A DNA stretch of 64,000 nucleotides from positions 1 to 64,000 of the forward strand of contig QPGO01000286.1 in NCBI GenBank assembly GCA_008632985.1, given 5' to 3'. The DNA comes from Psammoneis japonica (lineage: Eukaryota). Position numbers and translations under genes: made by a program. Positions 13,638-61,734 of this stretch are shown piece after piece. The notes under the pieces were generated by a model that was given only the letters and a program-made list of their open reading frames with translations, was not told the origin of the DNA and searched no databases. Position 1 is the stretch's first letter; the number at the start of each line of letters is the position of its first letter.

Positions 13638-13985
13638 TGTCAGCACACGTGAAGGAAAATGAAGATGACTGGGTGGAAGAAAACAATGACTCCTTGCTGC
13701 TGTCTAAATGGCAGATGAGTCTCCTTGCAGAGACCGTTGCAGGAGCTGAAAGACTGGTGTCGTGACATCTGCGCTGCTGCTGTCACTGTTCTTGTGAGCC
13801 ATGTGGCTTGAAAGCAAACTGCACTGCACAACGCGTGCGGAACTGAGAGCGCACACAATTGTGTGTGACAAACTAAAATCTTGCTCAAATCCTGTCACTC
13901 CCCATTTTGCTTGAGCGGTCAACAGTGACAGATTCGAGGTCAGACACAGGTTGAAAGCCTTGGGATCGAAGCTCCAAAACACATC
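13638..13985 (-). mobile_element. Copia 3' LTR copy 2 (13638-13897) with PPT and pol tail
   Basis: Reverse complement of ~655-981, including GGGGAG|TGACAGG and FWSFDPKAFN. Confidence 0.9.
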
Positions 13986-23160: not shown

Positions 23161-26111
23161 TGTGCAGATGCGGTGTGCCGTGTGGATGTGGAGTGATGTT
23201 TTTCGTCTGCAGCAAAACACCACTGGTTCGACCGCAGCAGGAGGTGGTGCATGCTGTCGCCAATGGAAAATCTCCAACAGAAATTGTCAACGGAAACCAG
23301 CACATCCATGAACATTGATTTGGGCGAACAAAAGGGTTGACAACCGTTGTCAAGATGTGTGCAAAATTGTGCAAGAACATGCACCAGGAGAATGATTGAA
23401 GGAAAGAAATGTTCAGCACAACTGCATTTGGGAGACCGGCCGGTCCGGACAGGCCCCGGACCGGACTGGTGACGCAGGGCCCCAAGCAATTTTGTAAAAA
23501 TGATCCAATTGTTTTGCAAGACCTGCACAAACAATTGCAGTCATTTCACCAGGCTCAGCATGTGACGTCAAGATTGCATGCCATGCAGTGCCGGACATCG
23601 GGATTCCATCTCAGGATTCCCTTTCAAGTGGCTTCGCTGCAACCACACGCGAGAAGAACAACCACAACAACAACAACAACAGCACCGCCGTCATTGTTGG
23701 CATTGTCAGCCTGTTCTGCATTGCATCACAATGACCAGTCCAAAATGCCGAGAGACCCTGTTGTCAATTCCACAGCCACTCTTGGGATGGCTGCAATGGG
23801 GGCTTCCAATGAGCTCACCTCTGACGCTTTTGCTCAGCAGTCAAGATTGGTGCGTGACATGCACAATGACCTGGGCGACAAAGACGACAACACAAAGAAA
23901 GCAATGAAAGTGCAAGTTTTGGTCAAACCCTTGTCACACCTGTGTTTTGATGATGTGTTTTGACCAAAGTTTTTGTCTGACCCTCTCCCCTGTTTTAATT
24001 AAATTGTTCTGGCAGACATGAGAGCCAGTTCTGCACAATGTGCGACCACAAGCATGCCTCATTGGGAGACACCAAGCATTTGATTGATGAGCAAACAGCC
24101 TTCATTTGCCTGTTCCATTTTGCCTTTTGCCCACAAAAGAAGAGGGGCAGGGCAAAGAAGGGAGAGACCAGGCCAATCTTTGATGCTGAGCTCTTTGAAA
24201 GGGTGACAGCCAGCAATCCCTTGACTGATGCAGTGGACGTTCCAAACAAGACTGAATTGCTTGACCAGATGGAAGCTGGTGTCAGTGAACCCAACAAGCT
24301 GTGCCAGTGGGATGTTGTCAACCAGGCTTGTGCATCCCTCAGACGACTCTTTGTTCATCAGCTTGAAACATGTGGCAGAGATCCTGCTGTGTTGCTTTGT
24401 TGTGAAAATTCCAGCCGCATCAGACATCTTAAGAGCCTTGTCAAGTCCAGGAAAGCACAAGAGAAATGGAAACGGATGGATGAGAAGGTGAGTCTTAATT
24501 AAAATGTGTTTCACATTTTTGTTTAATTAAAACCGCTGACCTGTGCTGTGTTGTCCACCTCAAACCCGGTCAGGTTTCTGGCGACGTGTCGCCCTGCCTG
24601 GCCCATGAGCATTTCCCAGAGTTGGAGGAGGGTTGCTGGGAACATTCTTCTGGGACATTGCTGAATGGAACAGTTGCTCTGCGCAACCGTTTCTTCATGC
24701 TGCACACAAAGCAAGCCATTTCCTGTGGGGAGTCTCCCCTCAAGGCTGACCTGAGTGATCTTTGCAGCTTCAGTTGTCAGGCAAGGAAGGAGGAACAGGC
24801 CTGCCTGATGCTCATCATGCAGATGTTCACAGGCAAAACCAGTGGTGAAAGCATGCTGTTTGGCCATGTCGTGCGACACAGAGATGTGAGAATGGACTCC
24901 ATTGGTGCATTGGGTCTTTATCTGCTTGGTGCGCATCCAACCATGTCTGATTGTTTTGGCTTTACAAAACGTTTTAATTGAACAAACTGTTGCTGGAATT
25001 CTTTTTGAATGCAGGATGCTTTGAGATCAGCAAGGGATGGGAGAAGATTGATCTCAAACGGAAGGGAACGTGGTGGAACATCAAGCTCCTTGTGGACGTT
25101 CAGAAGGCTGGCACATCCTCTGGAGACAGTGCCGATTCACCCAACACACAGCACATGTCTCCGTCATCTTACACTGCTTGGTTTGGTCATTTGAAAGAAC
25201 GGCTTGACCTGCTCATCAACTGCAGTTTGCACTTTGGACGTGTTGGAGGCACAATTGAGTTAGAGTTGGAGGAGCTGGAGTCTTGTCTCATCAAAGCTCT
25301 TGGAAATTGGGACCCAAGTGTGTTTGATGCTCGCTGCTCCACAAAGCTGCCCTTGAAGGTGAGTCGTTGCACTTGCGGTGTGGCCTGTTTCACTTTTAAT
25401 TAAAACTCACATTTTGTTTTAATTGAACAATTCCAGGCGATGAGGGTTGCAGCTGGCTTCGCAAAGGAGCCTGGAACCTGCTTTGTTTCACGTGCCCTCT
25501 GTCAGCCTTCAGATGAATTGCAGAAGGAGATCTTTCCTTGGCTGGAAGGCATGGCGGAAGGAGTGACTTGCCGGGAGCACCCCGCAGCACATGCCTTTGT
25601 TGGACTCTTGAAACAGTTGCATGTTGTCATCCTCCAAGATGCGGCGGCGTTGATGCTGCTGGGCCACACCCACGCCTTGTTTGAGCTTCCTGTTTTCATG
25701 TCAGCTGGATTTTTGTTGTTTGAGGATCAAATGAAGGTTTGCTTGGAAAAGGCACCCCCTTGCCCTGATGCTGGAGAGATCCATGGGGTGTTGGAGCAGA
25801 TTCAAAACTTGCACCAGGACAACCAACGCAGCCACCAGGAGCTGTTGTCCGCAGTCAATGGGTCCATTGACTGCAACAGAACGATGATGAACAATTTTGC
25901 CTTTGCCATTAGAAATTCGCTGCGTGCAGCTGGAAATGAGTTCAACAATTTGACCCTGGAGCGGTCTCCTCCACTGGCTGGGCAGCCATCACGCCAGCCA
26001 GCAATTGGTGAGTGCTGCATGTCATGCTGTTTTAATCAAACGTCATTTTAAATGTTGTTTTGGTTGAACATTGTTCTGACCAATTTGCGTGTTTAATTGA
26101 AATCATTTGCA

Positions 26112-29100
26112 CAACCAGGGAAGACAACAGCCTGCGCTCAACAATTGCATTTACTGTGCCAACAGGGCCGCAACTCTGTCGACCCCCGCAAAGCCTTCTG
26201 TGCGGACCTGTCGCGTGTGCTCCAAGAGTTTCGTGCGGAGAACAACCGAGAAGTGATCTTGTTCGGTGACTTCAATGCGGGCTTCTCTTTGGATGCAGAC
26301 TCCCTGGCTGCACTTGCCCAATGCTTCAATTTGTCCGACATCCTGTTCCAAATCCTTGGTGTTTCCGAATTTTCCACATGTGCGAGAGGCTCCAAAAGAC
26401 TGGACCATGTTCTGGCATCTCCAGGAGCTTTGTCTGCGGCTCGCCTGGGCGGGTGTGAGGCATTTGGATGCCGTGTCATGTCAGATCATCGGGCACATTT
26501 TTTGGACTTCGACACGATGGAACTGTTCAGGAACCCGACCGTCGATCTACCTGAAGCTTCCTTTCACGACATTCAGGCTTCTTCCAAACCCCAGGTCACC
26601 TCGTGTTTAACCTCCGCTGGACCCATGCTTGACAGCTGTTCTGTCTTGGAACGATCCACCCAGCTGATCGAGTCTGACACTCCGAATCACGAACTGGCAG
26701 AACGCTTGGACCGAGATCTTCTTCAGTTCTCCCTGGCGTCCGCGAAAAAGTGTCGATCCCAGACGCGTTCCAGCTCTAGGTGGGACCTCGTACTGCTGAA
26801 CTGTGACATCGATAGTTTTTTGGATCGCACCGCATGTCGCGCACGTAGAAAGGTGCGTGACTTTTCTGAAATTTTGTGTCATTTTGTGGCACACTTATTT
26901 ATTGAGCGATCCGTCCAACAACTTTTGACATTTTTTTCTTCTACGCCATTTGTAAATGTCTTAAGAATGGCGTAGGGCAGGCGGATTACCGAAAACGTCA
27001 AGCGGCAATGGTCATAATTGTACCACAAACTTGGTCATTTATTTGATGTTGAAGACAAAAATGTCCATTAATTAAATTCTCGTAATACGGAGCTCGTACG
27101 TAGAATTCTACGGGCCAAATGTCACAAAAAGTCCCACCTAGGACTGGAACCCGTCCCCACCGTGAACCCGACTGGTCGGTCAAGTTGGCAGATCTCCGTT
27201 ACAGAGTGTACATCTTCACTCGTGTTCTTTCCATGATGAGGAACCGTCTTGATCATGTCGCCCAGATCCAGCTGGTGCGTTCAAAGCTGATGGGCTCATT
27301 CTCCATTCCAACGACATTTCATGAATGTCAGGTTGCCTTGCGCAAGGCACAGGCTGAATGCAAGGCAGTTGCAAAGGAGAGCATCGAGCAACGTGAACGG
27401 GAACTGGCAGAGAAGATTGCCAAATTGGACCCAGACGGTGCAGCGGCTGCCCGTAAATCGGCAAAAATTATTCGGAACATGCAGAAGTCAGAAGAAACCG
27501 CCCGGTTGTTTTGCAAGATCAACGTGTGCAAGGCAAAACATGACACAGGAGTCAACAGCGCACAGGTCCCTCGCAACCCGGCCACCAATCCTAAAGAGTG
27601 CGAAGATTGGATCACGATCAATGCCCCAGATGACTTTTCAGCAGCATTGTGTTCTCGGAATCAGCGACACTTTGGACAGGCACATGGCGCACCTCCTGCA
27701 GTTCCTCCCCTGTCCGTGGATCTCGGATGCGAAGGTGACACAGTCATGGCTGACTTGATCTTAGATGGAGAACACGACACATCCTCTCTCAACAACGCTG
27801 CTGCTCTCTTCGTTCAACATCTTCAACGACGTTCACCAGTGTCGGTGTCTAACTTCCTGACTGAATCGGATCTCAAAGGGAAACTCAAGGTGTGGAAGGA
27901 AACTGCATCCACTTCTGTGTTCTTGGGCCTTCATTTGGGACACTGGAAAGCAATGCACGCAGCTCATTCTCATTCAGGCTCCACTGCCCCCGAAGGTGAT
28001 CTCACGTCTGAGTGTCAGCATTTGAATGAAGTTCAACAGCGGCTGATTCGGACTCGCTTGAATTTGTTAAACTGTGCTCTACGTTGGGGGCACTCGCTCA
28101 ACAGGTGGAAGGACATTGTCAACATCATGATTTTCAAAGAGCCAGGAAACAACAAGATGCATCGTCTCCGAGTTGTCCACGTCTGTGAGGCAGATTTCCA
28201 ATTGATGTCCAGTGTGAAATGGAGAGTCTTGGCACAGAACATGGAACACCGTCGTCTGTACAATCCAGGCATTTGCGGGACGCGTCCCTTTTTGAATGCT
28301 CACACACCGGTGCACCTTGAGGAACTTGTGCTTGAGATCAGTGGAGCATCCCAGAAAACTGCGATTCACAGTGATGGAGATTGTACCTCATGCCATGATT
28401 GCAACATTCCTGCTTTAACAGCACTCGAAAGCCGCAGCAACGGCATGCCCAAATCAGCAACTCAGACAGCAAACGCCACTTTACATGATGCAAGACACTG
28501 GTCAAAGACAGTTTGTGGCCTCTCAACATCATCTTGCTCCCATTCGGACGAGTTCCCTGTCTACGGCACTGGCCAGGGCAGCGGAAATTCACCCTTTTAC
28601 TGGAATCAAATTTGCAACAGCTTGTTTTGGCCATTTGACAGTCAAGCTCATGGGGCCTGCTTTGAAACTCCCGACAGGACAGTTTCAATGCGGATGCATG
28701 CCAGAGGGTGTGTTGACGATGCTTCGAATCAAGTGAACGCCTTTTGTGCTGATCCCCAACCAGATGCGCTGGACCTTGTCCCTCGAATGTAGCAAGATGA
28801 TCAGCTGTGGTGCGACCTCCTGGACGCGGCAGGACATGAGCTGGAGCTTCCAAAGTGCTCGTTTCATGCTGTTGAATGGCATTTTACTGCTGATGGAGAG
28901 CCACACCTTCGGGCGTACAATGACGAGATTGACATTGAAATCCACTCCGCCGACAGATCCACCAAAAGATCCAGCACCCAACTTTCCGCTTGTTGCTCCT
29001 CCCACAAGACACTGGGCCATTGCAAATCTCCTGCAGGCACTCAGAAGACTCAGTGCAAAGCACTGAAAACAAAAAGTGACGACATTTCTCTGTTTCTCTG

Positions 29101-31956
29101 GTTGTGTCCATTGGACCGTCATGAGGCATGGACTCACTGCGTGCCACCTGGCCTCCACCACGTGCATCCTTCCGAGTGCACATTTTCAACCGAAGGAATC
29201 ACTTGAGATTCAACGCAAGGCCATGCGAACTACATTTGCCAAGTGCGGCCACAACCGCAACACCAAGCGGGATGTTTCATTCGGACCGCATGCCTTGGGA
29301 GGTGGAGGATTCCGTTCTCTTGACGTGGAGCAGGGTGTCGCTCAATGTTTGCAGTTCCTTCGACACTGGTGCGGAAATGGGCAACCTCATGCTTTGTCCC
29401 ACATTGCAGTGGCGTGGACACAGTTCCAGCTTGGAACAGGGTCAAGTTTTCTGCAAGATGTAAACACAAAACTCCCACACTCCGAGCCCAAATGGTTCAT
29501 GTCAATGAGATCCTTTCTTGCCCGCACAGACGCTCACTTCGAACTGGACTTCACTGGCGTCCTTCCCACACAACGAGAGAATGATCAATGCATCATGGAT
29601 GTGGTGCTGGACTCTAATCTTTTCTTGGAAAAAGAGATCAGGTGGGTGAATTGTTGCAGGCTGTTCCTGCGGGCACTTGCTGTTTCAGACGTCACTCTTC
29701 CCGATGGTCGACATTTGGATGAACTCAAGTTGAAAGGGCAAACTTCCCTTGTGAGCAGCATGTCGTCACTCAATCCAGTCGAACAGGCATGCCCGTCTAC
29801 TCGCACCTGGAAACAATGGAACCGGGCGATGGCTCTGTTGTGCAACGAAGGTGCCTCCATCCTCTGAACCCCTTCAGGTCAATGGACCGTTCCTGCCTCC
29901 AAGATGCGCATGCTTCATCCGGCCTGTTACGAGCGCTCCAAAGAGTTTTTGTGTGTCCGCTCTGATGCGGGTTATCAAGTGTTTCCAGTCAAGGATGCGT
30001 GCGCTGAAACACTTCAGCAGTTGGAAACAGTTCCCGATCTATCCCCATTGGCATCACCTGTCATGGTGGACATGACTCTAGACGGCAGATGGCGAGCAAG
30101 ATCCATTGTGTCCCCAGTGAAGATGCCTCCAACAATTCCCGTCCTCGGTGACTTCTGCAAATGGCTGCGGTCTTTGTCATTGTGGGAGTCAACCCTGTTC
30201 AGTGTGCTTCACATGCATGCATCGGCATTTGAAATGGCGGAGTCCCTTGGGCGCTTCCGTGCAGAAGCAGGGAGTGATGGTTCCGTGTTGCATTTTAATG
30301 GCACCTTTGGCTGGATGCTAGCGGCCAACGGAGTGATTCTGGTGGATTGTGCAGGACCGGGCTTTGGATTCCGACTGTCCTCGTGTCGTGCAGAAGCACA
30401 CGGATTTTTGTCAGTTCTCCACTTTCTTGTTCGAGTGATGGACTTTTGCAACTGTTGTTTTTCACACAGTGTGGTTGCCCATTGTGACAATTCCTCTCTG
30501 GTGCGCAACGTTGCCAACTTTCATTCTCCCCCACCACTTCCTTTGGATGCTGATGATTCACAACGACAACAAGATTTTCATTGTCGGAATCACATCGCTG
30601 ACACGTTGGCGCCGGATTGGGACGTTGTCCACGAGATCTTTGCTTCACTAACAAGTTTGGAGGCCCAATGCAACGGCCATCTTGAAAGCAATGTCGTCAA
30701 CATGAAGTGGATTAAAAGTCATCAGGATGACAACACTCCGTTCGAGTCCCTCCCGTTCCCAGCAAAATTGAATGTTAGAGCCGATGGGTTGGCAGGTTTG
30801 TTTCAGGGTCAATGCACTGGAGACACCTCAATGGCTCCCCAAATGCCCCATTGTCATGCACCACTGAATGTCCAGTCGGCGTTGGTGAACTCGAAATTTA
30901 AATCAGTTCTCCGTTGCAAAGCTTCCAGCCCAGCTCTGATCCAACATGTGCAGGAGAAGTGCGGATGGTCTGACCCAGTGTGCGAATCTATCGATTGGAA
31001 AGTTCATTCCAAACTGATGTCTCGCAACATCCGACGAAAGGTGAGCACCATGAAATTGGTTCAGGATCTGCTGCCGACGAACAAGATTGTCCACAGATGC
31101 AATCCCACACGCCCCGACTGCTGCATGCACTGCCAACATCCCTTCGAAGACAGGGATCACATTCTGTGTTGTGCCCACAATGCATCATGGTGGCACACGT
31201 TCCTCCAAGGATTGCGGAAGAAATGTGACGACACACACACTTCCCTGTCTACACAAGACCTGTTGTTGCATGCCTTGGAAGGTTGGTTCAATGAGGAATT
31301 GCCCCATTCTACCCACGTCCATCACAGTGTCACAGAGCTGTTTCAATCTCAAGACGACATTGGTTGGCGCCACATTTTCAGTGGGCGTTTCTCCTGTCTG
31401 TGGAATGAGGCACAAACGTCACACTTGGAGTCTTCCGGCTTGTGTTGCTCTCCATCCGATAAAGACAAAAGATTAGACTGGGCGGCAACTGTTGGCAGAC
31501 ATGTGTGGTCACAATGGTGGGACTTGTGGGACTCCCATGATGATGCAGCACACGGACACAATTCAGAGACGCGAAAGTCTTCGCAACGACAGGACGCAGA
31601 GGCGGAGGTTAAAGAGATCCACTCTGGGGCAGATGAGCACTTGGCCCGGGAACAAGCAGAGTTGTTTACTTTGGCGGATGAACATCTCACCCATTCCACC
31701 CACAGACTCCGAAACTGGCTCGCCATGGCAAAACCAATGTTCAAGTCGAGCATTTGAGAGGCCCGGCGTCTGGCTGTCAGAGGCACGTGCACCATCGCAA
31801 GCTGCTTTGGCGCGGCATCACCAGAGGGTGATGCCGATCTTGACCAATTGTTGTGTGCTCCTGCTGCACCCAGTGCACTGGGAGTGTGGGTTGGCTTGTT
31901 GCTGGAGTTGCAGGGTGGAAGCGCAGCAGCACTTAAAATCAGAATTTGGGTTTTGT
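26112..31956 (+). mobile_element. 5'-truncated non-LTR retrotransposon ORF2 (APE, RT, RNase H, Zn finger; Ambal-like architecture), disrupted
   Basis: GDFN..RLDHVL..SDHRA (APE), GTGQGSGNSP and GCVDD (RT), SDGS..RAE..HCDN..WIKSHQDD..NVRAD (RNase H). 15-bp TSD TT(G/A)AAATCATTTGCA at 26097-26111 and 31957-31971. Confidence 0.9.
26762..27155 (-). mobile_element. MITE family A, copy 3 (394 bp), inside the LINE
   Basis: TSD CCCA at 26758-26761 and 27156-27159. Removing it restores the in-frame LINE sequence KKCRSHREPDW. Confidence 0.95.
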
Positions 31957-32546
31957 TTAAAATCATTTGCAGCCACAGGCATGGTGCCGGCAGCAGGTGC
32001 ACAGTCTCCCAGCACACAGTCTCCCAGTTCCGGTGTGATTGGCTTTCAACCCCCCAAGTCAAAGGACACAGATTTGGTTCAGATGTTTGACTTCTTTGAG
32101 GGAATTGCTCCTCCTTTCACTTCTGGCAATGGAGTCAGGCATTTGGAGGAGGACACATCGTGGCGTTTGGCGTGGGAGGAGAAGGACAAAAGGGCCCTTT
32201 GTCATTGGAAGCAGCTGATGGACATTGTGGACAAAGTGCTGGTTGAGAACTCAGCACACCCTCAAGTTCCAGTCATTGCCAAGTTGAATGCTTTTTGTGT
32301 CAAAGATTGCAACAAGGCATTGACAACTGCTTTGAAGAAGTTCCCTGAACAACAATGGCACTTTGCCACTCCAGCTGGCAACAGCACAAATCAAGGGGAA
32401 CTGGCCAATGTTTAGAAGTCAATGTGTGTGTTGAGATTTTCTTGAGAGGCTGGTGATGGAACGACAGAGTGCATGAAAGATGATCACATTTGCTTTCTAC
32501 GTTGGTGCCTCTTCTTGCACTTTAAACAAAACCCTTTCGCAGCATT

Positions 32547-33778
32547 TTAAATGAAACCATCCACTGAATCAATTGAAACAGCGCCACTCCAATGAACACA
32601 TTTGAACTCGATGCCAGTGCCATTTAGAATGTCCACCACTTTGACACAGATTTTGCCATCTGGCTTGCCTTGCCCATTCCAAATGTTGTCATTGAGAACG
32701 TTGTGTTTGGCATGAGTGAACCATGTGGCACATTGCGAGGCAACACCACCTGCAGAGTTTTTCTTTGCAACGAACAACTTACAGACCTTGTCAAATTTGT
32801 CACGGTCCTCCTGAGGGACTTGGAAACCCTTGGGTGGGGGGTGCTTCTGATGCGCTGCGATGTGCGCAAACAAGCCCCTCACATTCTTTAGAATGTTGGG
32901 CAGTGCATTGCGGTTTTTCTTCACCTTGCCACCTTCCTCCCACGTGGTCTTGGGCCACTCAATGCTGTCCAGCTTTCTGAAACCAGCAATTGGATCTTTC
33001 TTGGGGGGGCATGTTGAAGGTGCTTGCAGCAGCAGTGGTGGCAGCATTTTTGCCGCCCTTGCCCTTGCCAGCCTTGGCACTGCTTGCAGCAGCAGCAGCA
33101 GCAGCGGCGGCATTTTTGCCGCCCTTGCCCTTGCCAGCCTTGGCGCTGCTTGCAGCAGCAGCAGCAGTGGTGGCAGCATTTTTGCCACCCTTGCCCTTGC
33201 CAGCCTTGGCACTGCTTGCAGCAGCAGCAGTGGCAGTGGCAGTGTTTTTGCTGCCCTTGCCCTTGCCAGCAGCCTTGGCACTGCTTGCAGCAGCAGCAGT
33301 GGCAGTGTTTTTGCCGCCCTTGCCCTTGCCAGCCTTGGCACTGCTTGCAGCAGCAGCAGCAGCAGTGGCAGCATTTTTGCCACCCTTGCCCTTGCCAGCC
33401 TTGGCAGCACCCTCCTTGGCCTTGAGGCACGCAGCATTGCTGGCACTCTTCCTTGTGGGCTCAACGGCAGCATTGGCAGGGGCGGCCTTCCTCTGTGCAC
33501 GCAGAGAGAAAAAGGTTTAAATTAAAAAAAAGCTTTGTTTAAAAAAGGTTGCCGGGCATTTTGTTTGGAACAGGTCACCGCGCGTGTGTCACCGCGTGAC
33601 ACAAGCAAGACAGGAAACAGACCGGTCCAATTGAGATGGACACACACACAAACAGACGTGCCTTGCCATCCGACTTGTTGCTGCCATCAGGAGCAGCATC
33701 CGTCATTGTGGAGTCCCTTGGTGCTTCTTCACTGCTCTCTTTTTCTTTTTGACGGGCAGTCGCCATGGCTGATGCCAT
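32547..33778 (-). pseudogene. Two-exon gene convergent with the Crypton YR, encoding Lys/Gly/Ala repeats and an unknown C-terminal domain
   Basis: Exon 33778-33662 joins exon 33492 onward in phase 0 (donor GCACGT, acceptor CAG), giving RKAAP..TRKSA..(AKAGKG)x6. A +1 slip in the G7 run (33003-33009) separates the C-terminal PKKDPIAGF... frame. Confidence 0.6.
33020..33410. repeat. Six imperfect ~60-69-bp tandem units with variable GCA tracts
   Basis: ttttgcc(g/a)cccttgcccttgccagccttggc(a/g)ctgcttgcagcagc repeated. Confidence 0.9.
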
Positions 33779-34779
33779 GGCGTCGCATCGCATGTCCGGT
33801 GTCGGCAGAGGGCGATGACAAGAGAGACGGTGAGAGGGAGGTGATGGTTTTGTGTCTTTGATGGTTTGATTGGTGTGGGCATTGGATGCGCGAGATGGAA
33901 TCTTCAAGTCGTGGTCAGGCGCACGATGACGTCACATGCAACAAAATCCTGTCTGCACGGAGGGGGTGTCATTCAGCCAGACGGGTCAGTCCGGACTGGG
34001 GCGCGCAGCGCCCACATTGGAAGTGCATCGGAATGAACCGGTCCATGCAGTGGGGGGTGACAAAACAACTGACATTGCACTTAAAACAAATTGAACACAT
34101 TTGTTTAAAAGACAAGTTGTGCGTCATGAAAGTTTTCACACAAATTGTAAAAATGCACTGGCGTTCCTCACCAAAATGACCGCAGCCAAATTGGTTTTCG
34201 GGTGTGCAGTCATTTTGTGCATTTTGTGCAACTGCGCCACCCGTGGGTGCACAGAATTGCCAGCAGCTTCACAGAGCATGAAAATGACCGAAATGATGAC
34301 CATGACCCAAAAAATTAGCCCTCTGTTGAAGAAAAGTGTAACCAGACGCACGCTGGGAATGTGGAGTGCCAAAATGCTGGCCGTTGACGGTTTTTAGAAT
34401 TGCTTGGGGCCACCCACACTCGAGCAGTGGGAGTTCAAAAGCAATGATGAAACCAATGATGACGAAAGCCTTGTTGACAATGCCGATGGGGTTTGCTCCC
34501 CAGTCAAGCATTGCCTCGCTGCACCTTCCAAAGTGGCCTCCCGACCCACCACCGCACACTGAGCCCTTTTTTCTGTGGCATCTCTGTCATGTTGTTTCGG
34601 TTTTCACCATTTTCCTCATTGTCTCCAACCCTTGCGCAATTGCCACGACCCCTTTCCTGCCATTTCCCCCACCCTTGAGTTTCATCCCCTCCTCTTTTGC
34701 CGATTCTTCAACCCACCACAAACAACAGCACAGCCCCTCCCTTTGGCTCCTTTCTCAACCAGTCATTCTCAATTAAATT

Positions 34780-37372: not shown

Positions 37373-38184
37373 GTTGCAACTGGGTGGGTGTCGGAACTGG
37401 CTGGAGTCGGAGGGTGAGCTTGAAATGACTTGAAACTTGACTTGAATCTTGACTTGATGTCATGGACTGTCTTGAGAGTCAGAAGCCACCGGGCTGTGAT
37501 GTCCCATTCGCAGTCAAGTGCCAAGCTTCCCATCCGGTCTGCAGAGTTGTGCCGGCACGTCCGAACCCGCGGCTGGCGATGCTTTGGGTTGCTTGAGAGT
37601 GGAGCAACGGGTTAAAAACCCCTGCTGACAAGCCAGCCAGAGGTGGACAAGACCTCCGGACCGTTCTTGTTTTATGTCAGTTGGATGACCTGATCAGACT
37701 GGCCAAATCTGGTGCTGTGGAGGGACAAACAAACGTGGGAAATGCACCCTCGCCCCAACGCAGGCTGTGATCACAAATTGCTTCCTCTCACAGTTGTCCT
37801 CGTGCACCCTGCAGGACTGTGGAAGACCAGCAATCCGGCGCAGACATGAGATGGTAGACTTGGAGTGCGTGGAGCAGAGCCAGAGTCAGGGATTTATGTC
37901 GTGTGTGCGTGGACGCGTGCAGATGTGTTGGTGGGATCCGCTGTGAGGAATCCGGAATCTCGGATGTCTGAGAATTCAGGAATTCCTGGCCAAACAAATG
38001 TCCGTTGAATGAACACATCCAACGATGGGAGGTGTCGGATAAATCCAAACGCGCAGATTTAATCCAGCACTCAGCAGTGAAGAAGGTAGACACATGCTTC
38101 CACCGCCAACGGTGCGCGTCGTCGAAAATTTCTCGATTACGATGATGAACGCTCAACGGACAATGAAGAGCAAGGCCGCCAATC

Positions 38185-38429
38185 TGTCAGAAAATGAAGA
38201 TGACTGGGTGGAAGAAAACAACAACTCCTCACTGCTGTCTAAATAGCAGATGAGTCTCCGTGCAGAGACCGTTGCAGGAGCCGAAAGACTGGTGTCGTGA
38301 CATCGGCACTACTGTCATTCTTCTTGTGAGCTCTGTGGCTCGAAAGCAAACTACACATCGCGCGACGCGCGGAACTAAGAGCACACACAATCATGTGTGA
38401 TAAACTAAAATCTTGTTCAAATCCTGTCA
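38185..38429 (-). mobile_element. Copia LTR copy 3 (245 bp), in the 5'-LTR position
   Basis: TGACAGG...TTTTCTGACA, followed by a candidate PBS (gatTGGCGGCC), a leader and gag. Confidence 0.9.
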
Positions 38430-38449
38430 CCCCCTTGCTAGCTTGAGGG

Positions 38450-39846
38450 CTGCTCCTTCTCTCTCCCACCTGCTGACACTCCTCCACTCCAAATGCCCAA
38501 GCTCCTGCGTGCTCACCTCTCTTCTGTCCATAAACACCGCAGTGTCCGGACCATCCCTGACTGACTCTTTCTTCGACCTTCATAACCTGCATCCATGCCA
38601 TGACGACATACACTGCCAACGCACCACCAAAATGTGTCTCCGCGATACATGCTTACATACCGGTACCCATGTTTGTAACGCTCATTACCAGCCACGCATG
38701 GTTCTTCCCGACACATTACTTCACCCAACTCGTAATCATGATTCTGTTCTTGTGGAAAACAAGCAAAAGCAGCTTCTTATTAATGTCTTGGGAAGACACA
38801 TTCGGTACGTCCAAGCGATGGACTTGAGGACTGGAAAGCAATGGGCACAAACTACACCTAGTAACGACCCAAAAGGATTCCCATTGAACAACCTTAATCA
38901 CGTATACACTGTTCTTGTCGACAGTTTGAAGGGTGACGGAAAGGATCTATGGTTGCCGTGCGGGTTCAACGGCGATGAAGTCAATGAAGAGAAGAGCATC
39001 CAATATGCTCGCATACTAGATCTCAAGACCCTGAAAATACGATTGGGTCCAAAGCTTCCATATCCTGGCGGAGCCTGTGTCGCTCAAGCTCTTGAAATTA
39101 TACCAAACGAACCGCCCATGATTTGCACCTTTGGAGGCATGGTGGATAGTCACGAGTCAGGGGAATTCATACCCTACTCTACTTGTTACGATCGTGTGCG
39201 TAAGAAATGGTGGTTTCCTTTTGGAAAGTTACCCATGGCTTTTGATCACGGAAGTATTTCCTATGTGCCTTCCAACACCTGTAATCCTGGAGACCCTGCA
39301 AGGCTACTGATTCTCAATTTTCGCACCGAGTCATACGGGAAACAAAGAGGGGAAATAATGGCGTTTGACCTCCCTTCAGAGGGATGGAGTCATGAAGACA
39401 TTGCAGCAAAGAAGAAAGGAGATCCCGGCAACTGGTATATTTACCAAAATGTAACTTACAGTGGTCCAGATGACGTTGTTAATTGCCCTCGAGATGCAAG
39501 TGGAACAGTGACAGCGAATAATGGAAGAAATATTCTCAATTACGGTGGCGTCTACTATCATTGGACCACTGGCGAGCGTGACTGGCAACGCTTTTCGGTT
39601 GTGCGGTCCTTTGATGTTTGTACAAAGCAGTGGTCGGCTGTTGGTGATATAGGTGTACAAACCTTTGCTCTCCAGACAGTGGCCAGCCAAGAGCTGCAAA
39701 TTAGTATAACATGCGGTGGTTTGAGCCATTGGTACGTGAGACGCAACGAGACCGAGAACAGTCCATGGTGCATCGTGAACCGTCTCGGGAAACATGGCAC
39801 TTTTCAGAATCGGCACGGCAAACCAGCTTTTGGAGATTGGTTCTGA
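38450..39846 (+). CDS. Kelch/beta-propeller-like protein; 5' end uncertain and abutting the LTR
   Basis: Long ORF with normal composition and Kelch-like GG..YD..W repeats (TFGG..CYDRVRKKW; NYGG..FDVCTKQW). Possible ATGs at 38632 and 38698. Confidence 0.7.
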
Positions 39847-54244: not shown

Positions 54245-55170
54245 TGGTTTTTCTCTCTCTCCTGTCAGTCAATGCTGAAAATCCCTTGCGTGGTCTGCTT
54301 GCGCAGCCGGGAGTGTCTCGTGCATTGGTGCTGTTTGTTGCCACGCCATTTCGGCGCTGTCCTGTGGATGCACCTCCCCAATTTTTTTCACCACTGGTGC
54401 TGACTACAGTCACGCCATCTTGGCGCCATGTCACGTGGGCATTGCTCTAAATCCTGACTGGGTCCGCTTGTCAGCGTGGACCGCTTCGGCGGCCGAGGAT
54501 TGCCTCGCACTCTGGCCTGTTTGCCACACCTTTCAACGGTGCTTTCTCACAAGGAGCACATCCTCATGTGGACGGTCTCAGCACCATTAAAAGTCCCGCA
54601 TGGGCAAACAGTGGCATGGCTTTTCAATCCGCCTGCCGCTTTTTCCTGAACGCCCATGTTGGGCCCCTTTTCTTTTGCCGCTCTGCGGTTCATGGTCATT
54701 GCCTTTCCTCTCGGCGTGTCCAATTTTTCCCCTCTCCCAGGGACGTGGTGTGTTTAGACTTGTGCACCAGCACACTGCAGTGTCTGAATTGCCAGCTCTA
54801 TCTGGTCGACATCAATTGTGTGCACATGTGTACACTCCCGTGAGGGTTTAGTCAAAACGAAATTTGCCACCACGTTTCGGGGGTTTTTCGTCTTCTCGCG
54901 AAATGCGCGCCATCACGATGATGAATGGTGATGGAAACTGACCCGTCACATGGGAATGAAACTTGGATTTCTTTCTTATCTCCATTCATTGGACAAGTGT
55001 GGGAATCGTGAAGGGTTGCGTTCGCGGAACCGACACGGTGTCAGCCAACGCTTGTCCTTCTCGAGCAATTTCCACACGCTGGTGTCCTTCACTTTCCGGT
55101 GAGATTGCTCTCACTTTTCCTTTTTGCGATCGGACAAGCCTTTGGTTTTCTGCTGCTCTGTTGTTCCACC

Positions 55171-57449
55171 ATGAACCACGCCCACGCTGCTGCCATCAAC
55201 CGCGGTGAGCTCTCCGCTGCAAAGCGGCACTCCACCGCTTTGCCCTCCTCCACAGGTGCGATCAAGTCTGTCTCAACTGCTGTCCACCGTGACACCCAGA
55301 AGGAGCTGCGAGACCATGTCTTCACGACCTCTGACCTTTTCTACGCGGTCTGCAATCGCAAGATTGCGGTTGTGGCGAAACCTCGCCCCAGGCAGCATGC
55401 TGATGGGAATCTAAAGTGGATCGGGAGCCTCTCGGATACGATCGGCGAGGTCATCCCAATGTTTGGCAGTTGGACTCGTTTCCAAGGCCATGCAACCACT
55501 CTAGTCCCCCAGGGCACTGTGGATGCTCATCACCTGCCCAAGTGCGAACTCAGCCCTGACGAGATTGACGGTCCCGTTGGCAATGACGGCAACAACGTGC
55601 CGGCGTCGATGGGTCGTCTCCATTTTGGGAATCCTTCCGGACCGGCAGAGCGTCCCTCCATCGTCGCGCTCCCGATGTTCCTGCCAATCCCAATGGGTGT
55701 CACCCTTCCTGTTGACTTTGACCCAGCAGATCCCCCAGCATCCCTTGCCACTAACTTTCCGCTCGGAGTGGTTTGGGCTCAGGGTGTGTCCTGGTTGCTT
55801 CAGCACAACGCGTCTGTCTCTGTCACAGAAGGCGGCCCTGTGTTTGAGCAGAACGGTTTTGCCATTGTCGATGAGTTTGCAGGCCTTGAGATCCACAATC
55901 TCGACGACAATGATGCACAGATGCTCCAACCTCTGACGGATTGGTGTGCACCAGTCAAGACCACAATGGACGCCTTTGCAGATGAGACCTGGAGGCAACT
56001 CGGTGGAGAGCCCGCGCAGACACCAGCTCCCGCCGCCCCAGCCCAAGGCACCAACGGACAGGTTCCGAACCACACCATCAACATCCCGCACCAGGACTCG
56101 AAGAAGGAGTCAGACCAGAAGCTGAGGGCGCACGACATTGGCCACCGCTGGTCACTCTGTGCGTTCCGAGCGACTGCTGGCACAGGTCCGGAGGACCCGC
56201 CCATGATCATCGTGGGCGAGCTTACGGACCAAGCGGTCAAGATTCTGCAGGACACGTCGGCTGCCAATGCAAACCGTGACCTTGCGGATCTTGTTAAGAT
56301 GGCTGTTGTTGCATCAGCCCGTGGTGACAGTGGTCTAGACGCTGGGGTCGATTGCAAGTGCACCACAGTCAACAAGGCCACACGGACTGTTTCCGCGGCT
56401 TTAATGTGGTTGCGGAGCCCCCGCAGTGTGGCCAGGCTTCGGACCGTACGAAGCTGTCTGTCTTTCCCTTTCTTCCCCCGAAGACTGCATCATCTTCATT
56501 TGCTGGTCTCAAGGACGAAGGGAGGACACTCCATCGGGCACTTGCCAACGGCTCCGACTGCAAGATCCCCGATGACGCAAAGGCGAGTGACCTTTGCATC
56601 CAAGGAAGGATGGACACTGCCAGCGATCTGTGGTCAGCACTTTGCAACTTTCGCTGTGTCCTTGGATGTTGGATCAAGGACTTCGACAATGCGGAGCTGT
56701 GGAAGTCCCTGGATGCGTGCGCAAAGGTTCTCTGGTCGCACCCGGGCCATGCGTGGCTCAAGAATCTCGAGGACCCGAAACCAGTCGTCGCTGGCATCCT
56801 AGATGATTTCCAGACTGTTGTCAAAGTCTACTTTGAGATCGGAGACTCTCCCTTGTACCGTCAGGCGGTAGAAACCGAGCGTCCGCTGAGCTGCCAGACA
56901 GCAAAGGACGCTCGCACTCTGGTCAAGTCCCTCATTGTGGACCTCAACACCGCGATCACGCGGGGCAAGCCTCTGGCCTTTGCGGAGGCATCTACATTGG
57001 CCCTTGTCCCCCCAGGCAACTCTGTGTTTCCCTCTGCTGCTAGCGGAACGAAGGACAATGCGACCAAGTCTGGTCAACCTCCGAATGAGAAGCCGCGTAC
57101 AGGGGAAACAGATGAGAAAACCGCCGAGCTCTGCAAAGCGATGGGTGTGCTCAATTTTTCGGGCACGAAGCGGCTCCCGACCAGCCCCGTTTTCTACAAG
57201 AAGCGAGGATCAGATCAGGAGGAACGTGTCTGCATGTACTTTTGCACTGAGGGGCACTTCTGCAAGTTCCCCAACTGCCCGAAGCCCCACCCATCGTCTC
57301 TCTCCAAGATTCCGAGTGAAAAGAGGGATGCCTTTTGCCAATTTGTCAAAGACACCCCTGGACTCGATTTTGTCCCTGGCAAGGGCCCAGACGGTGCATC
57401 CCAATCAGGTTCAAAATTTTCTAGTCTATGCACTGTACCCTGTTGCTAA
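55171..57449 (+). pseudogene. gag-like ORF1 of the YR retrotransposon with C-terminal CCCH finger; frameshift near 56355
   Basis: Two overlapping protein-like ORFs; CMYFCTEGHFCKFPNCPKPH. Confidence 0.7.
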
Positions 57450-57529
57450 TGCAGTGTTGTCCAAAACTGTTTTGTTTTTACTCTTGATTAGTCTACGTTA
57501 TCCCGGATAGGTCCGTTCGTCTCATCGCA

Positions 57530-60418
57530 ATGGATGTCGACAACGACAGCGATCAGGAGTTCGAGGTGATCGATGCAGAAAAAGAAGAGACCGGAATGAG
57601 TGTCGATGATGCCATCCCAGCTATTGACGCTGCACTTGCCACGTCGGTGAAAGAGCCGCACCCGAGCCTACGCCGAGGTGCGGTCACGCCGCAGCCTCCC
57701 GTCGACGAGAATGAGCTGATTGAGCTATTCCCTACCTTCTCCATGGTCCATAAGAAGAAAGGGACCGATCTGATTCCTACAATCAATAACGGCTTCAACA
57801 AGAAGGCACGTGAGCACTTTGCCAATGCGGAACTGTCACCGGGCGTGCGTGCTAAACTGGACCAAAAATTCGGTAAGGAAAGCTTGAATCAATGTTTCTT
57901 GTTGGAAGCGTGTTTGCGTCATGTGTTGTCACCGCTGTTGAAATCCGGATACCTTTCGCCACCGGTTGATTGTGTGAGTGACTTGTCTGCCCAAATCGCC
58001 TTTGGGGGCGATTGGGAGAACTTCGGAGCGGCCATCCCGGAAGCAGCCGAGTTCATGAGTCTGGTCCAGGAACATGGCGACATCGACTTTAATCCTCTCC
58101 AAGGCTACCCCAAGGGATGGCAAAAGGAGACAACGGTCAATGCGGATAGAGCCGCGATGACAACTGCCGCGTTGTTGCATTTTGATGGCGACCCAGCAAA
58201 CCTGGTTCGCTGGGTTGGCGGACCGCACGTCAGTGAACACAGATGCACGCAGAAAATGCTCCGCTTTCTACAAGGTCGTGTGCCCGACGAGACAATGGCA
58301 CACGTTCGCCGCATCTTCCAAGACGGGGCGCCAGCGAAATGCAACACTGCTTTCTCTGAAGCAAACTTCCAAGCAGCTCTCAAGTGCGGAAACCACAAGA
58401 CCGTTGACGCTGCACCTGACAAAACATTGGCGGCAGTCGTCAAGGACAATCGCAAGGGTTTCACGCTGCTTTTTGACCAGCGTCTGGTGCCATGCTTGCT
58501 GAACTGCCATCTCACTCCTCAGGGGATGGTGGACCTTGACAAGAAATGCAAGAGTCCGTGCCCCATCTTCGACAGTGCGATGCGAGCGACTCCAGACGGT
58601 GTGGCAATCAACGACACGATGGACCTCAAGCACGAACCGCCGATCACGTTCCCATCAGCGGAAATGGACTTTATGGTGTGGACATGGAACATGAGAATGT
58701 CCTGCCCACATGAGGAGATCTGCCTCGGCGATGATGATGTGAGTGGCGCTTTCCGCAACATGAAGCACCACCCGAACCTCGTCGGGATGCATGCCAGCGT
58801 CCAGTGTGGACCAGGCGTCCCACAGACGGGTTGCACCTTCGGCGACAAGACCAACCCAAGCAACTGGGACGCCATTGCCAACGCAAGACAACATCTTGCT
58901 CAACACTTCTGGCTGGTGCCCAACATGGTGGAGCTCGCCCAGCAGTGTCTCCCATCGACATCATTCGCGGAACCTCCAACAGCTGAAGAGGTGGCGTCAT
59001 TCTGTCCTGCGGAAGCAGACGCTGTCAATCCGGGCGTGTTCCTAGACGGCAACCGTCTCCCACCAACATGCAAGCACCACATCGACGACAACTTCTACGG
59101 AGACACACGTGACTTGATGAAAAGAACAGTCGCTGCGAGCGCCCTGGCCGTGTGCATTGTGTTGGGCTTCCCACGCGATGAAACTCCGGATTTCCCAAGC
59201 AAAGAGAAACTGGACACACTGTGCTCGCATCTCCGACGAGCCCTGGGAAGGCACTTCAACTCAAGAGCACTGTCGGTGGGAATGCTCCCATACAAACGAG
59301 AACAGTTCCTTGAAACTTTGCAAGAATGGTGTGACAAACAACGGCACACACTGTTGGATGCAGCGAACCTGAATGGTCAATGTGAATTCCATGCGCGGTG
59401 TTGTCCATGGGCTCGGCCGAATTTTTTTGCACTCCAGAATTCCGTGCGGCGGGCTGTGGTCGTCCAATGCGCCGTTGTCAAACGAATCATGGAGCGACAA
59501 AATTTCAAATTAAATTTTGAAACTCAACTGCCGAGTCATCTCAGGAATGGGCTGCCGAGCTCACTTGCGCGCACACAAGCCCAGCTCCTCTGTGAGCTGA
59601 AGATCGAGATCCCGATGACATCCGATGTCATTGATGTGATGAAGGATGCAGCACCCTACATCGAATCGACGCCAGACCCATGGACAGCACCGATTGGATG
59701 TGTCATGCCGCGAGTGCCACATTGCCAAGCAATTGGAGACGCCAGTGACGCAGGCGGAGGAGCCCACTGCGCGGAACTCAAATTTTGGTTCGCATTTCTT
59801 TGGGGACCAAAAATGGCGAAAGGGCTCCGGCTGAGGAAGGCCTCCGACCCAGAGTGTGTCCATGTCAACACAGCAGAGTTTGTTGTCATCACACTCAAGC
59901 TGGCAGCTGCAATTGTCCGCATGGAGACTGTGACCCGAGAACGGGCCCATGAGTTCTTCCGGAACGGCGTCGTCCCGCTGCACCTGGTTGTCAGGAGTCG
60001 TTCAGACAACATGGTGTCGGTCAACCGGTCCAACAAAGCAACGTCAAAGTCGCCACAGGGGCAACGATTTGTTTGGGTCTTCTGCAAATTGCTCCGCCGT
60101 GCTCGTGCCAACTTCAACGGTGATCACATCTTTGGCGACGAAAATTTTGTTGCCGACGACATCTCACGACCTTCTGTTTTTGCCTTGATCTTGCATCGCA
60201 CCCATTCTGAACAGCTGTTTCGGAAGTGTCCCTTTCTGAAGACCTGGGACTGTTTCCAGCCGAGTCAAGAGCTGCTGCAGCTCCTCTCCTCACAGCTGTC
60301 TACCAAGCACAGAATGGCACCCCAGATCCCAAGCGACTTGGGACAGCTCGTTCCCGCAGAATCCATTTCCTCTGCTTTTACAAGAGTGCGAAGTGGCACC
60401 TGGGAGATCCGGAAATGA
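57530..60418 (+). CDS. Reverse transcriptase/RNase H (open frame, but YIDD reads HIDD)
   Basis: DDVSGAFR, TFG..NPSNW, HIDD; RNase H GDAS, HVNTAEF, SDN, HIFGDENFVADDISR. Confidence 0.9.
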   Translation: MDVDNDSDQEFEVIDAEKEETGMSVDDAIPAIDAALATSVKEPHPSLRRGAVTPQPPVDENELIELFPTFSMVHKKKGTDLIPTINNGFNKKAREHFANAELSPGVRAKLDQKFGKESLNQCFLLEACLRHVLSPLLKSGYLSPPVDCVSDLSAQIAFGGDWENFGAAIPEAAEFMSLVQEHGDIDFNPLQGYPKGWQKETTVNADRAAMTTAALLHFDGDPANLVRWVGGPHVSEHRCTQKMLRFLQGRVPDETMAHVRRIFQDGAPAKCNTAFSEANFQAALKCGNHKTVDAAPDKTLAAVVKDNRKGFTLLFDQRLVPCLLNCHLTPQGMVDLDKKCKSPCPIFDSAMRATPDGVAINDTMDLKHEPPITFPSAEMDFMVWTWNMRMSCPHEEICLGDDDVSGAFRNMKHHPNLVGMHASVQCGPGVPQTGCTFGDKTNPSNWDAIANARQHLAQHFWLVPNMVELAQQCLPSTSFAEPPTAEEVASFCPAEADAVNPGVFLDGNRLPPTCKHHIDDNFYGDTRDLMKRTVAASALAVCIVLGFPRDETPDFPSKEKLDTLCSHLRRALGRHFNSRALSVGMLPYKREQFLETLQEWCDKQRHTLLDAANLNGQCEFHARCCPWARPNFFALQNSVRRAVVVQCAVVKRIMERQNFKLNFETQLPSHLRNGLPSSLARTQAQLLCELKIEIPMTSDVIDVMKDAAPYIESTPDPWTAPIGCVMPRVPHCQAIGDASDAGGGAHCAELKFWFAFLWGPKMAKGLRLRKASDPECVHVNTAEFVVITLKLAAAIVRMETVTRERAHEFFRNGVVPLHLVVRSRSDNMVSVNRSNKATSKSPQGQRFVWVFCKLLRRARANFNGDHIFGDENFVADDISRPSVFALILHRTHSEQLFRKCPFLKTWDCFQPSQELLQLLSSQLSTKHRMAPQIPSDLGQLVPAESISSAFTRVRSGTWEIRK

Positions 60419-61467
60419 CTGTGATTGGCAAGGACCCAAAGTGCTGCCAACTGGTGCTAGCTGTGCATGCATTGCATCTAGCTAGCGGCTCCACTCTCTA
60501 CTGCAAGAACATCTCCTCAGGTGCCATCAAGGAATGCGTCCACGACGTGTCAACGTTCGTGTCTCTGTTTGGTTCCACGCATCGGGACGTCCGTAAAGAC
60601 AACAGCGTGGACACCAAGATGGGGTGGATCCTCAGGAGAGCATTTGATGAACTCCAACGGTGCGAGAAAGTCCCGGAACGGCGCGAGTCATGCACGTTGC
60701 TGATGCAGCAACGAGCGACGTTGACAGCAGACAGCATGCGAGAAACTGACCCGGACGCGATCGAGGTGGTCCTCGCTGACTGGTTTGAGATTGGGCCAAT
60801 GGCCGGCTTGCGAAGCATCGAATGGGCTCAATCCAATGAGCACTCAGACCTGGAGAACCCAAGGCTGAACATCTTTGAGGAGACCTGCGTGTTCTGCCTC
60901 GACGACGTCCGCTGCGAGACAAAAGACAAGCACCGACACACCGGAGCGGATTGTCTCATCCCCAAGCAAGAGGATGTCGAAAGCATGTGCATCATGTTCC
61001 GAGCTCAGAAGAACATGCACAATGGCGAGGAACGCCAGTTTGCTGTGAATCTCGATGGCAAGCACGACTTGGCAAAGCAGATGCTTCGCGTCATCCGACG
61101 TTTCGTGCAGGTCCGTGGCAAGGACGACAAGATCTGCCCCCTTGCTGTCTACTTCGATCCAAAGGAGGACAAGTGCCGTCTCGTCACGTCCAAGAAAATC
61201 AAGACCCACATGCATGGAATTGCCGCGGAAGTTTGCCACCTCGACCCGGTGAAAGATGAGAAAGCTCTCAGCAAATGGTCGGCTCACTCCCTCCATGTTG
61301 GAGCCTGTAATGTCCTTCACGAGATGAATTTTAGTGGCGAGCAGATTAAATGGCTGCTCAGATGGCGATCTGATGCCTTTGTGGCTTGTCTCCGCAACTG
61401 CCTGGGTCTTTCCCAGGCCCATTGTCGAGCTCTCGACAAGGCGGCACCCATGCCGTTTTTCGATTAA
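60226..61467 (+). CDS. Tyrosine recombinase overlapping the pol 3' end (open frame, catalytic residues altered)
   Basis: GLRSIEW, HSLHVGA (from HSLR), LRWRSDAFVACLRN (expected catalytic Tyr reads Cys). Confidence 0.9.
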   Translation: MSLSEDLGLFPAESRAAAAPLLTAVYQAQNGTPDPKRLGTARSRRIHFLCFYKSAKWHLGDPEMTVIGKDPKCCQLVLAVHALHLASGSTLYCKNISSGAIKECVHDVSTFVSLFGSTHRDVRKDNSVDTKMGWILRRAFDELQRCEKVPERRESCTLLMQQRATLTADSMRETDPDAIEVVLADWFEIGPMAGLRSIEWAQSNEHSDLENPRLNIFEETCVFCLDDVRCETKDKHRHTGADCLIPKQEDVESMCIMFRAQKNMHNGEERQFAVNLDGKHDLAKQMLRVIRRFVQVRGKDDKICPLAVYFDPKEDKCRLVTSKKIKTHMHGIAAEVCHLDPVKDEKALSKWSAHSLHVGACNVLHEMNFSGEQIKWLLRWRSDAFVACLRNCLGLSQAHCRALDKAAPMPFFD

Positions 61468-61734
61468 TCCATTCACACGGATTCAATGTGTCCCCTTTGT
61501 GTGTGTCCTCTCTGCGTGACATAAAATCGCACACTGTCGTCCTGTTGCACCCGAAATTTCAATTTTGAAATTCGAAATTTGATCCCAGCAACGGGATCGT
61601 ACACATGCATTCAGGAGGAACATTCGTCCCTCCATCGTGTCTGAAGAAAACAGATTTTTTTTTCCGGTTGGCTCTGCCTCCGATGACATGGGCGCGTTTG
61701 CAATGCTTTCAGCATTCCGCGTCGGCAGCATGGT

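Follow-up and report, generated by a model that had tools for sequence, protein, structure and literature searches.

Flank-dependent erasure of TA sites from the mobile DNA of a diatom-like genome

The window, that is, the whole 64,000-nucleotide stretch of DNA that was analysed, contains a dead Crypton-like tyrosine-recombinase element with two nested insertions. The Crypton-like element spans positions 23422-34079 on the forward strand and is divided into a left part (23422..26111), which matched NDC10_II (Pfam PF16787, E 4e-10), and a right part (31960..34079, also forward). The left part holds 20 TA dinucleotides (observed/expected ratio, o/e, 0.11), 16 of them YTAR and none RTAY, and the right part holds 10 (o/e 0.085), eight of them YTAR. 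The element had initially been described as TpA-free, which is wrong; it is TA-poor, with o/e values of 0.09-0.11. Between the two parts lies a LINE-type retroelement (26112..31959, forward strand; PF03372/PF14529) flanked by a 12-bp duplication (26100-26111 and 31960-31971), and sister copies of the Crypton join across this site. The LINE showed a TA o/e of 0.135 when the MITE nested inside it was excluded. This 394-bp MITE (26762..27155) has 10-bp terminal inverted repeats and a 4-bp duplication, and it is mostly intact, with 22 TA and an o/e of 0.70. The host control gene (38404..39846, forward strand), whose named homologues are chiefly diatom, gave an o/e of 0.63, with 23 RTAY versus 8 YTAR and 16 tyrosines in 480 aa; on the strength of these homologues we call the genome diatom-like. 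TA o/e tracks the nesting: 0.11/0.085 for the Crypton, 0.135 for the LINE, 0.70 for the MITE, and 0.45-0.63 for gene blocks. Depletion covers about two thirds of the window, while GC is steady at 0.48-0.50. A probable reverse-transcriptase element (54500..61500, forward strand) has near-identical copies that differ chiefly at TA and CG steps. A repeat of about 265 bp beside the host gene (38184-38449) retains TA (o/e 0.46); its copies at 716-981 and 13655-13915 of the window are eroded (o/e 0.11-0.12). Over the whole window, loss of TAA and TAG stops has left 88 frames of at least 150 aa on both strands, which is a trap for gene prediction.

Six further copies of the Crypton-like element were found with 81-94% identity. 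All seven copies are eroded and none is TA-intact; at the edge of one copy, TA drops from 5-9 to 0-3 per 100 bases within about 200 bases. Protein search found no Crypton relatives (171 pattern matches, none confirmed), and ancestral sites were therefore inferred from the element's own copies. Sister copies show TG versus CA in the same columns, which indicates independent loss after insertion. The copies are dead, with frameshifts and lost tyrosine codons, and three exons retain only 2 Tyr in 421 codons. At 25335..25337 (forward strand), apparently an erased Tyr codon, the element has TGC (Cys), and two of its sister copies have CAC (His); by its position this would be the catalytic tyrosine of the recombinase. 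No GCR1_C match was detected in the decayed 3' frames, and comparison of the ends for 4-6 bp terminal direct repeats did not resolve such repeats. Both ends (23435-23470 and 33985-34050) carry GC-rich GGACCGGTCC-type short repeats with CpG partly retained, possible recombinase binding sites. On the minus strand of the right part, a long frame with a 66-bp tandem repeat (32547-33521) was without a Pfam match.

The surviving TA sites cluster at 23990..26110 of the forward strand. Direct count gave 19 TA within 2121 bases: 14 TTAA, 2 TTAG, 2 TTAC, and 1 TTAT, so that 16 of the 19 are YTAR and none is RTAY. Introns, inferred from GT..AG ends and reading frames, contain 14 of the 19 TA, including 13 of the 14 TTAA. 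In 2000 dinucleotide-preserving shuffles of this interval, TTAA averaged 2.0 (maximum 7; observed 14), YTAR averaged 6.4 (maximum 15; observed 16), and RTAY averaged 3.3, with the observed zero reached in 3.1% of shuffles. The same shift was visible over the window, where tiles with TA o/e<0.2 (232 TA) held 113 YTAR and 15 RTAY, and tiles with TA o/e of at least 0.4 (457 TA) held 78 YTAR and 136 RTAY. The initial annotation had reported TTAA-dominated, mostly intronic survivors and rare RTAY, and these counts bear out both statements (14/19 TTAA and 14/19 intronic; RTAY 0/19 in the interval and 15/232 in the low-TA tiles). Its list of survivors elsewhere was partly right: TTAA belongs on it, CTAG does not (only 9/232), and GTAA/TTAC, which it omitted, is the third commonest context (39). 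TCTAC and GTAGA, listed separately, are one duplex context, in which the next base is most often G (23/65); the slowing of loss beside CpG, given below, explains part of its survival.

Retention of the NTAN tetramers was calculated from 1232 de-duplicated 500-base tiles drawn from the window and other loci of the same genome, by comparing 543 TG/CA-rich tiles with 294 normal ones, a selection blind to TA counts. In this sample, which is enriched for repeats, 797 of the 1232 tiles had TA o/e<0.2. Retention was highest for TTAA (0.57) and CTAA (0.32), followed by CTAG (0.17), GTAA (0.17), ATAA (0.10), and CTAC (0.10), and it was lowest for GTAC (0.058), ATAG (0.044), ATAC (0.023), and ATAT (0.019). 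Without the Crypton loci, the order was unchanged at both extremes (TTAA 0.42 versus ATAT 0.003). Uniform NTAN depletion, which would have spoken against any context preference, is rejected by the spread from 0.57 to 0.019.

The direction of mutation could be polarised because other families include intact copies. The first set comprised 46 intact/eroded pairs with <3.5% transversions, picked for TA loss. Its 784 TA sites were found as TG (311), CA (293), TA kept (146), CG (8), and other (26), i.e., 604 of the 638 changed sites had become TG or CA; the choice of pairs inflates the amount of loss and not its context. The second, held-out set consisted of MITE copies recognised by a terminal-repeat pattern, which missed one subfamily. 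From the first 63 of the 188 matches, less 3 already in use, 60 copies were taken. These were bimodal: 53 copies had 1-14 TA, seven had 29-34, and none had 15-28. A recent transposition burst would give the same picture as a switched process. The intact copies are located in TA-depleted flanks, and in one subfamily intact and eroded copies showed similar transversion depth; the intact ones may be young offspring of diverged sources, and a similar depth need not mean a similar age. For fitting, we used those eroded copies that lay within 12 transversions of an intact copy (32 of the 53) and left out the other 21. Comparison of 23 eroded copies with their intact sister gave 813 transitions and 23 transversions. 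No strand coordination was observed within copies (chi2 41.8/38 in the first set and 26.5/26 in the held-out copies); each copy was therefore hit across many rounds, and a single-burst, strand-coordinated model is rejected. The MITE family is of very high copy number and has several subfamilies; a first look gave 1414 candidates and the strict pattern 188 matches, and the 4-bp duplication is exact in 51 of the 60 copies. Two MITE pairs (L038/L073 and L039/L074) share common flanks, as haplotypes or segmental duplicates, yet differ at TA and CG, so mutation followed the duplication.

The context dependence was ascertained by a competing-risk fit that sets the two strands against each other at each TA site; the bootstrap was taken over 225 distinct contexts because sites recur across copies. 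In the first set, −lnL was 745 for the uniform model, 740 with 5' R/Y, 672 with 3' R/Y, and 672 with both, so that adding the 5' base shifted lnL by 0.2. The TAY/TAR rate ratio was 3.2 (context bootstrap 2.8-5.0), and among asymmetric contexts the TAY strand took most of the hits in 71 and the TAR strand in 24, with 17 ties. The 32 held-out copies gave a ratio of 3.0 (2.1-5.5) and a 5' Y factor of 0.82; TA was retained at 14/336 RTAY, 133/520 mixed, and 52/153 YTAR sites, and mixed sites took 294 hits on the TAY strand versus 93 on the TAR strand. A 5' pyrimidine as the protective base is ruled out by the fits in both sets, and a 5' A raised loss about 1.5-2-fold, with an interval that touches 1 in the second set. 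YTAR outlasts other sites because both of its strands read TAR. The initial proposal of YTAR as a resistant context holds in that YTAR is the slowest class; it does not hold as a recognised resistant motif, since YTAR still erodes, i.e., it is slowed and not immune. We regard both the flank rule and its replication as nearly certain.

An adjacent CpG or A-tract slowed loss by a further 2-4-fold. In the first and second sets, respectively, the rate factors were 0.42 and 0.52 for TACG, 0.19 and 0.28 for CGTA, 0.57 and 0.24 for TAAA, and 0.59 and 0.30 for TTTA; the A-tract intervals of the first set touch 1, and every held-out interval for the four contexts is <1. Present-day depleted DNA agrees: a C directly after TA lies in CpG at 209/756 sites versus 2249/16021 at offsets 3-20, and this enrichment is flat in normal DNA. 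The A-to-G spectrum was taken from the 23 MITE copies, using the columns in which five intact sisters all agree. The rate was 0.485 at TAY and 0.236 at TAR, and elsewhere it was 0.034 (CAY), 0.009 (CAR), 0.019 (AAY), 0 (AAR), 0.030 (GAY), and 0.004 (GAR); reverse-change controls were 0-0.005, except AGY (0.019). CA is about 14-fold below TA, and AA about 40-fold (AA-to-AG 10/1219 versus TA-to-TG 409/1127). The 3' order extended weakly to non-TA adenines in three other families (RAY 71/1053 versus RAR 37/1254). By duplex symmetry, A-to-G in TAY is indistinguishable from T-to-C in RTA. Tandem TAA-to-TGG changes were enriched in the first set (8/77 versus 1/94) and in the Crypton (14/72 versus 1/150, or 6/56 versus 1/128, depending on the site definition); the held-out copies showed 4 versus 0, and the cleanest subfamily 1/345. 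As this enrichment is inconsistent between sets, it is only suggestive of processive tandem editing.

CpG was lost alongside TA. Eroded MITE copies had lost 64/387 CpG and intact copies 0/84, and TA and CpG loss were correlated per copy (rho 0.58, n=41), with loss fractions of 602/746 for TA and 211/813 for CpG. The TA-loss rate was reduced near CpG (0.48 within 10 bases of one and 0.36 adjacent to it). The simple form of a CpG-triggered repair patch predicts faster loss near CpG and is rejected, as the rate was lower. Local AT content had no effect on TA loss. A 3' rule common to CpG decay was also discarded; one set showed it (CGY 0.108 versus CGR 0.051) and two others did not. Diatom transposons are described as CpG-methylated by DNMT5a, and a RID-related DNMT4 is documented as well (PMC9998398).

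The introns carry the motif TTTAATTAAA (23994..24003), which differs between Crypton copies; further copies, intact or eroded, were found at 23918, 23959, 24522, 24973, 25395, 25418, 26031, 26059, and 26092, and the TTTTAATTAAA motif occurs about 10 times in the introns of the Crypton family. That selection, through splicing or protein binding, keeps the intron TTAA in place of slow mutation would fit this recurrence, the intronic position of 13 of the 14 TTAA, and the retention over seven Crypton copies, which is 55/92 site-copies in introns versus 5/21 in exons. Yet 37 of the 92 intron site-copies have mutated, the copies are dead (frameshifts, lost Tyr codons), TTAA is the top survivor even without the Crypton loci (0.42 versus 0.003 for ATAT), and A-tract slowing is also present in the non-coding MITE; selection is largely refuted and we hold it very improbable. 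The cluster reflects ancestral abundance of TTTTAATTAAA multiplied by the slowest context, and neither immunity nor selection. General GC-biased drift, gene conversion, or an assembly artefact is less probable still, practically negligible. The net TA change does raise GC, but GC remains 0.48-0.50, 0-3% of non-TA adenines change compared with 24-49% of those in TA, TA falls from 5-9 to 0-3 per 100 bases over about 200 bases at the edge of an element, an intact MITE lies embedded in eroded DNA, and the dependence on context and strand refutes drift. Against an artefact, contigs from a sequencing run, possibly of the source sample, exactly match three pieces. The initial annotation had preferred an enzyme to drift on account of flanking bases. 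Its rejection of drift stands, as does a context-reading, repeat-targeted process, and the identity of an enzyme does not follow; flank preference by itself is no proof that the base is the direct target of an enzyme.

Two further explanations concern the agent itself. A base modification on repeat TpA (of A, or of T in RTA) might miscode or convert, as 5-methylcytosine decays at CpG. The per-copy coupling of TA and CpG loss (rho 0.58; 64/387 versus 0/84), the independent hits on the two strands, as from a standing mark, and the many cytosine methyltransferase genes (27 matches among the best candidates) are consistent with it; passive decay would require TA loss about three times CpG loss (602/746 versus 211/813), and Tet_JBP was unmatched among the best-scored candidates. 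We consider this reading unlikely, and rather more unlikely an error-prone Y-family polymerase (iota- or eta-like) that puts G opposite T while silenced repeats are replicated or patch-repaired. The genome does hold a Pol iota-like gene and two eta-like genes, and Pol iota prefers G opposite T (PMC3031609) and is linked with tandem mutations (PMC6423074). Few transversions were seen (23 versus 813 transitions), strand tracts were not seen in the first set or the held-out copies, and loss near CpG, which CpG-triggered patches should speed up, proceeded at 0.48 within 10 bases and 0.36 adjacent. Pol eta yields WA hotspots (PMC6423074), so hits at AA are expected, yet AA gave 10/1219 versus 409/1127 at TA; at about 40-fold below TA, the WA rule fails. 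The comparison with enzyme spectra that the initial annotation proposed thus turned out against Pol eta, and a TadA-like spectrum agrees with the 3' order.

The direction of change, its TA specificity, the 3' rule, the slowing by CpG and A-tracts, the sparing of genes, the independent hits, the bimodality, and the CpG loss are established. Our main reading, with a probability of about 0.52, is that a DNA adenine deaminase of TadA/ADAT or ADAR fold acts on silenced repeats under a rule in which TAY is hit about three times as fast as TAR. As the agent, a DNA adenine deaminase is about an even call and the likeliest candidate, ahead of a miscoding modification and, further behind, an error-prone polymerase. 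Adenine would be converted to inosine and read as G at replication, and hits would build up on both strands over many rounds after a copy is marked, probably by the same mark that methylates CpG. Access to the base may be impeded by stiff A-tracts and by CpG that is methylated or bound by protein, and the TTTTAATTAAA motif would unite TAR on both strands with A-tracts. A wider reading is more tentative: a natural adenine base editor of diatoms serving as genome defence, the mirror image of RIP. This editor would be switched copy by copy with CpG methylation, would read 5'-TAY-3', would be shielded by a neighbouring methyl-CpG or A-tract, and would be shared with distant Rhizaria.

Gene searches covered the 91 Mb genome, with only the best candidates scored. 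The deaminase genes found were TadA-like and ADAT2-like, plus dCMP, guanine-type, and RibD-type genes (the last three labels read from sequence), and two A_deamin genes, one from a family widespread in diatoms. This second A_deamin gene (L153/L154, C79) is additional to the expected ADAT1; its family is conserved in centric and pennate diatoms, and for its homologues Pfam lists A_deamin only. The deaminases look like an ordinary tRNA-editing set with one diatom-wide A_deamin gene, and neither they nor the polymerases and methyltransferases given next are tied to TA loss. A deaminase-like frame bordering TA-depleted DNA (L149:1315-1773, C151) looks like a decayed duplicate and resembles the L138 deaminase, which carries a fused 2OG-Fe(II)-type domain. 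Five Y-family polymerases were found: Rev1, a kappa-like, two eta-like (read from sequence), and one iota-like (L158, C22), whose best matches are Pol iota (E 2e-26). Among the cytosine methyltransferase matches, one DNMT domain (L171, C34) has a chromodomain upstream, as in some diatom DNMT4 proteins. TA-erased methyltransferase copies (L168, C301; L169/L170, C297; L177, C28) carry a motif like that of the intact host DNMT (L164) and are possibly transposon-borne or duplicated DNMTs struck by the mutator.

The strand-resolved fingerprint (TAY about threefold over TAR, TA hit far more than CA or AA, slowing by CpG and A-tracts) allows candidate enzymes to be tested for specificity and already excludes the Pol eta WA rule, and the intact and eroded MITE copies are a natural reporter of when the process acts. 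The fingerprint likely points to a DNA-editing enzyme that disables mobile DNA. If so, a natural DNA adenine deaminase would be directly relevant to base editing, and mutational genome defence would extend to diatoms, with more than half of the sampled, repeat-enriched DNA rewritten.

Among known systems, RIP of filamentous fungi shares the repeat-targeted dinucleotide transitions, the killing of transposons, the sparing of genes, and the all-or-none look between copies. RIP changes C to T and creates TpA, with a one-strand bias within a mutated copy. Its polarity (C-to-T at CpA, TpA gain) is opposite to that observed here, where TpA is destroyed, and no one-strand bias was seen (chi2 41.8/38 and 26.5/26). 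TACG is the tRNA motif of bacterial TadA; here TACG is slowed (factor 0.42-0.52). Engineered TadA (ABE3.1, ABE8e-YA; PMC12528748) is described as converting A to G in DNA after a 5' pyrimidine with YAY>YAR, an order that both sets reproduce. Those editors are engineered, work on a single-stranded substrate, and accept CA, whereas TA here is about 14-fold over CA, and strand coordination, expected if single-stranded DNA were traversed only once, was absent. A-to-G at TA is also common to Pol eta somatic hypermutation (PMC6423074), but its WA includes AA, which is about 40-fold lower here.

The element resembles CryptonF (Kojima and Jurka 2011, PMC3212892) in its NDC10_II-like recombinase region, its introns, and the absence of visible long terminal repeats, and differs in that GCR1_C was not detected in the decayed 3' frames; for the single diatom that it covers, that survey names CryptonS only.

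The closest precedent is Bigelowiella natans, the sole report of TpA hypermutation that we located, with none found for a diatom. In it, Mettrop et al. (bioRxiv 10.64898/2026.01.13.699255) describe TpA-only A:T to G:C hypermutation of integrated viral DNA, propose an ADAT2-type deaminase as the agent without demonstrating it, and give a de novo TpA mutation rate raised about 1000-fold. Both processes turn TpA into TG or CA, act locally, are directed at foreign DNA, and leave TA-depleted transposon domains. In the present genome, A:T to G:C change falls almost only at TpA (604/638; other adenines 0-3%), with CpG decay alongside, and mobile DNA is targeted while genes are spared (o/e 0.09-0.14 for the Crypton and LINE versus 0.45-0.63 for gene blocks). 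The B. natans process is described as not always on, and here the copies are bimodal (53 with 1-14 TA versus 7 with 29-34), a pattern that a recent transposition burst would produce as well. The systems differ in that ours is a diatom-like stramenopile in which multi-copy DNA and retrotransposons are struck, the loss is near-saturating, and CpG decays in the same copies; the rate was measured de novo in B. natans and is inferred from copies here. The main text of Mettrop et al. contains no flank rule and no diatom, and its supplements may hold flank data; here TAY>TAR and the CpG-adjacent and A-tract rule were measured. On the part of the literature covered, TpA hypermutation itself is known from B. 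natans, and what is new here is a flank-resolved rule of TA erasure in a diatom-like genome.
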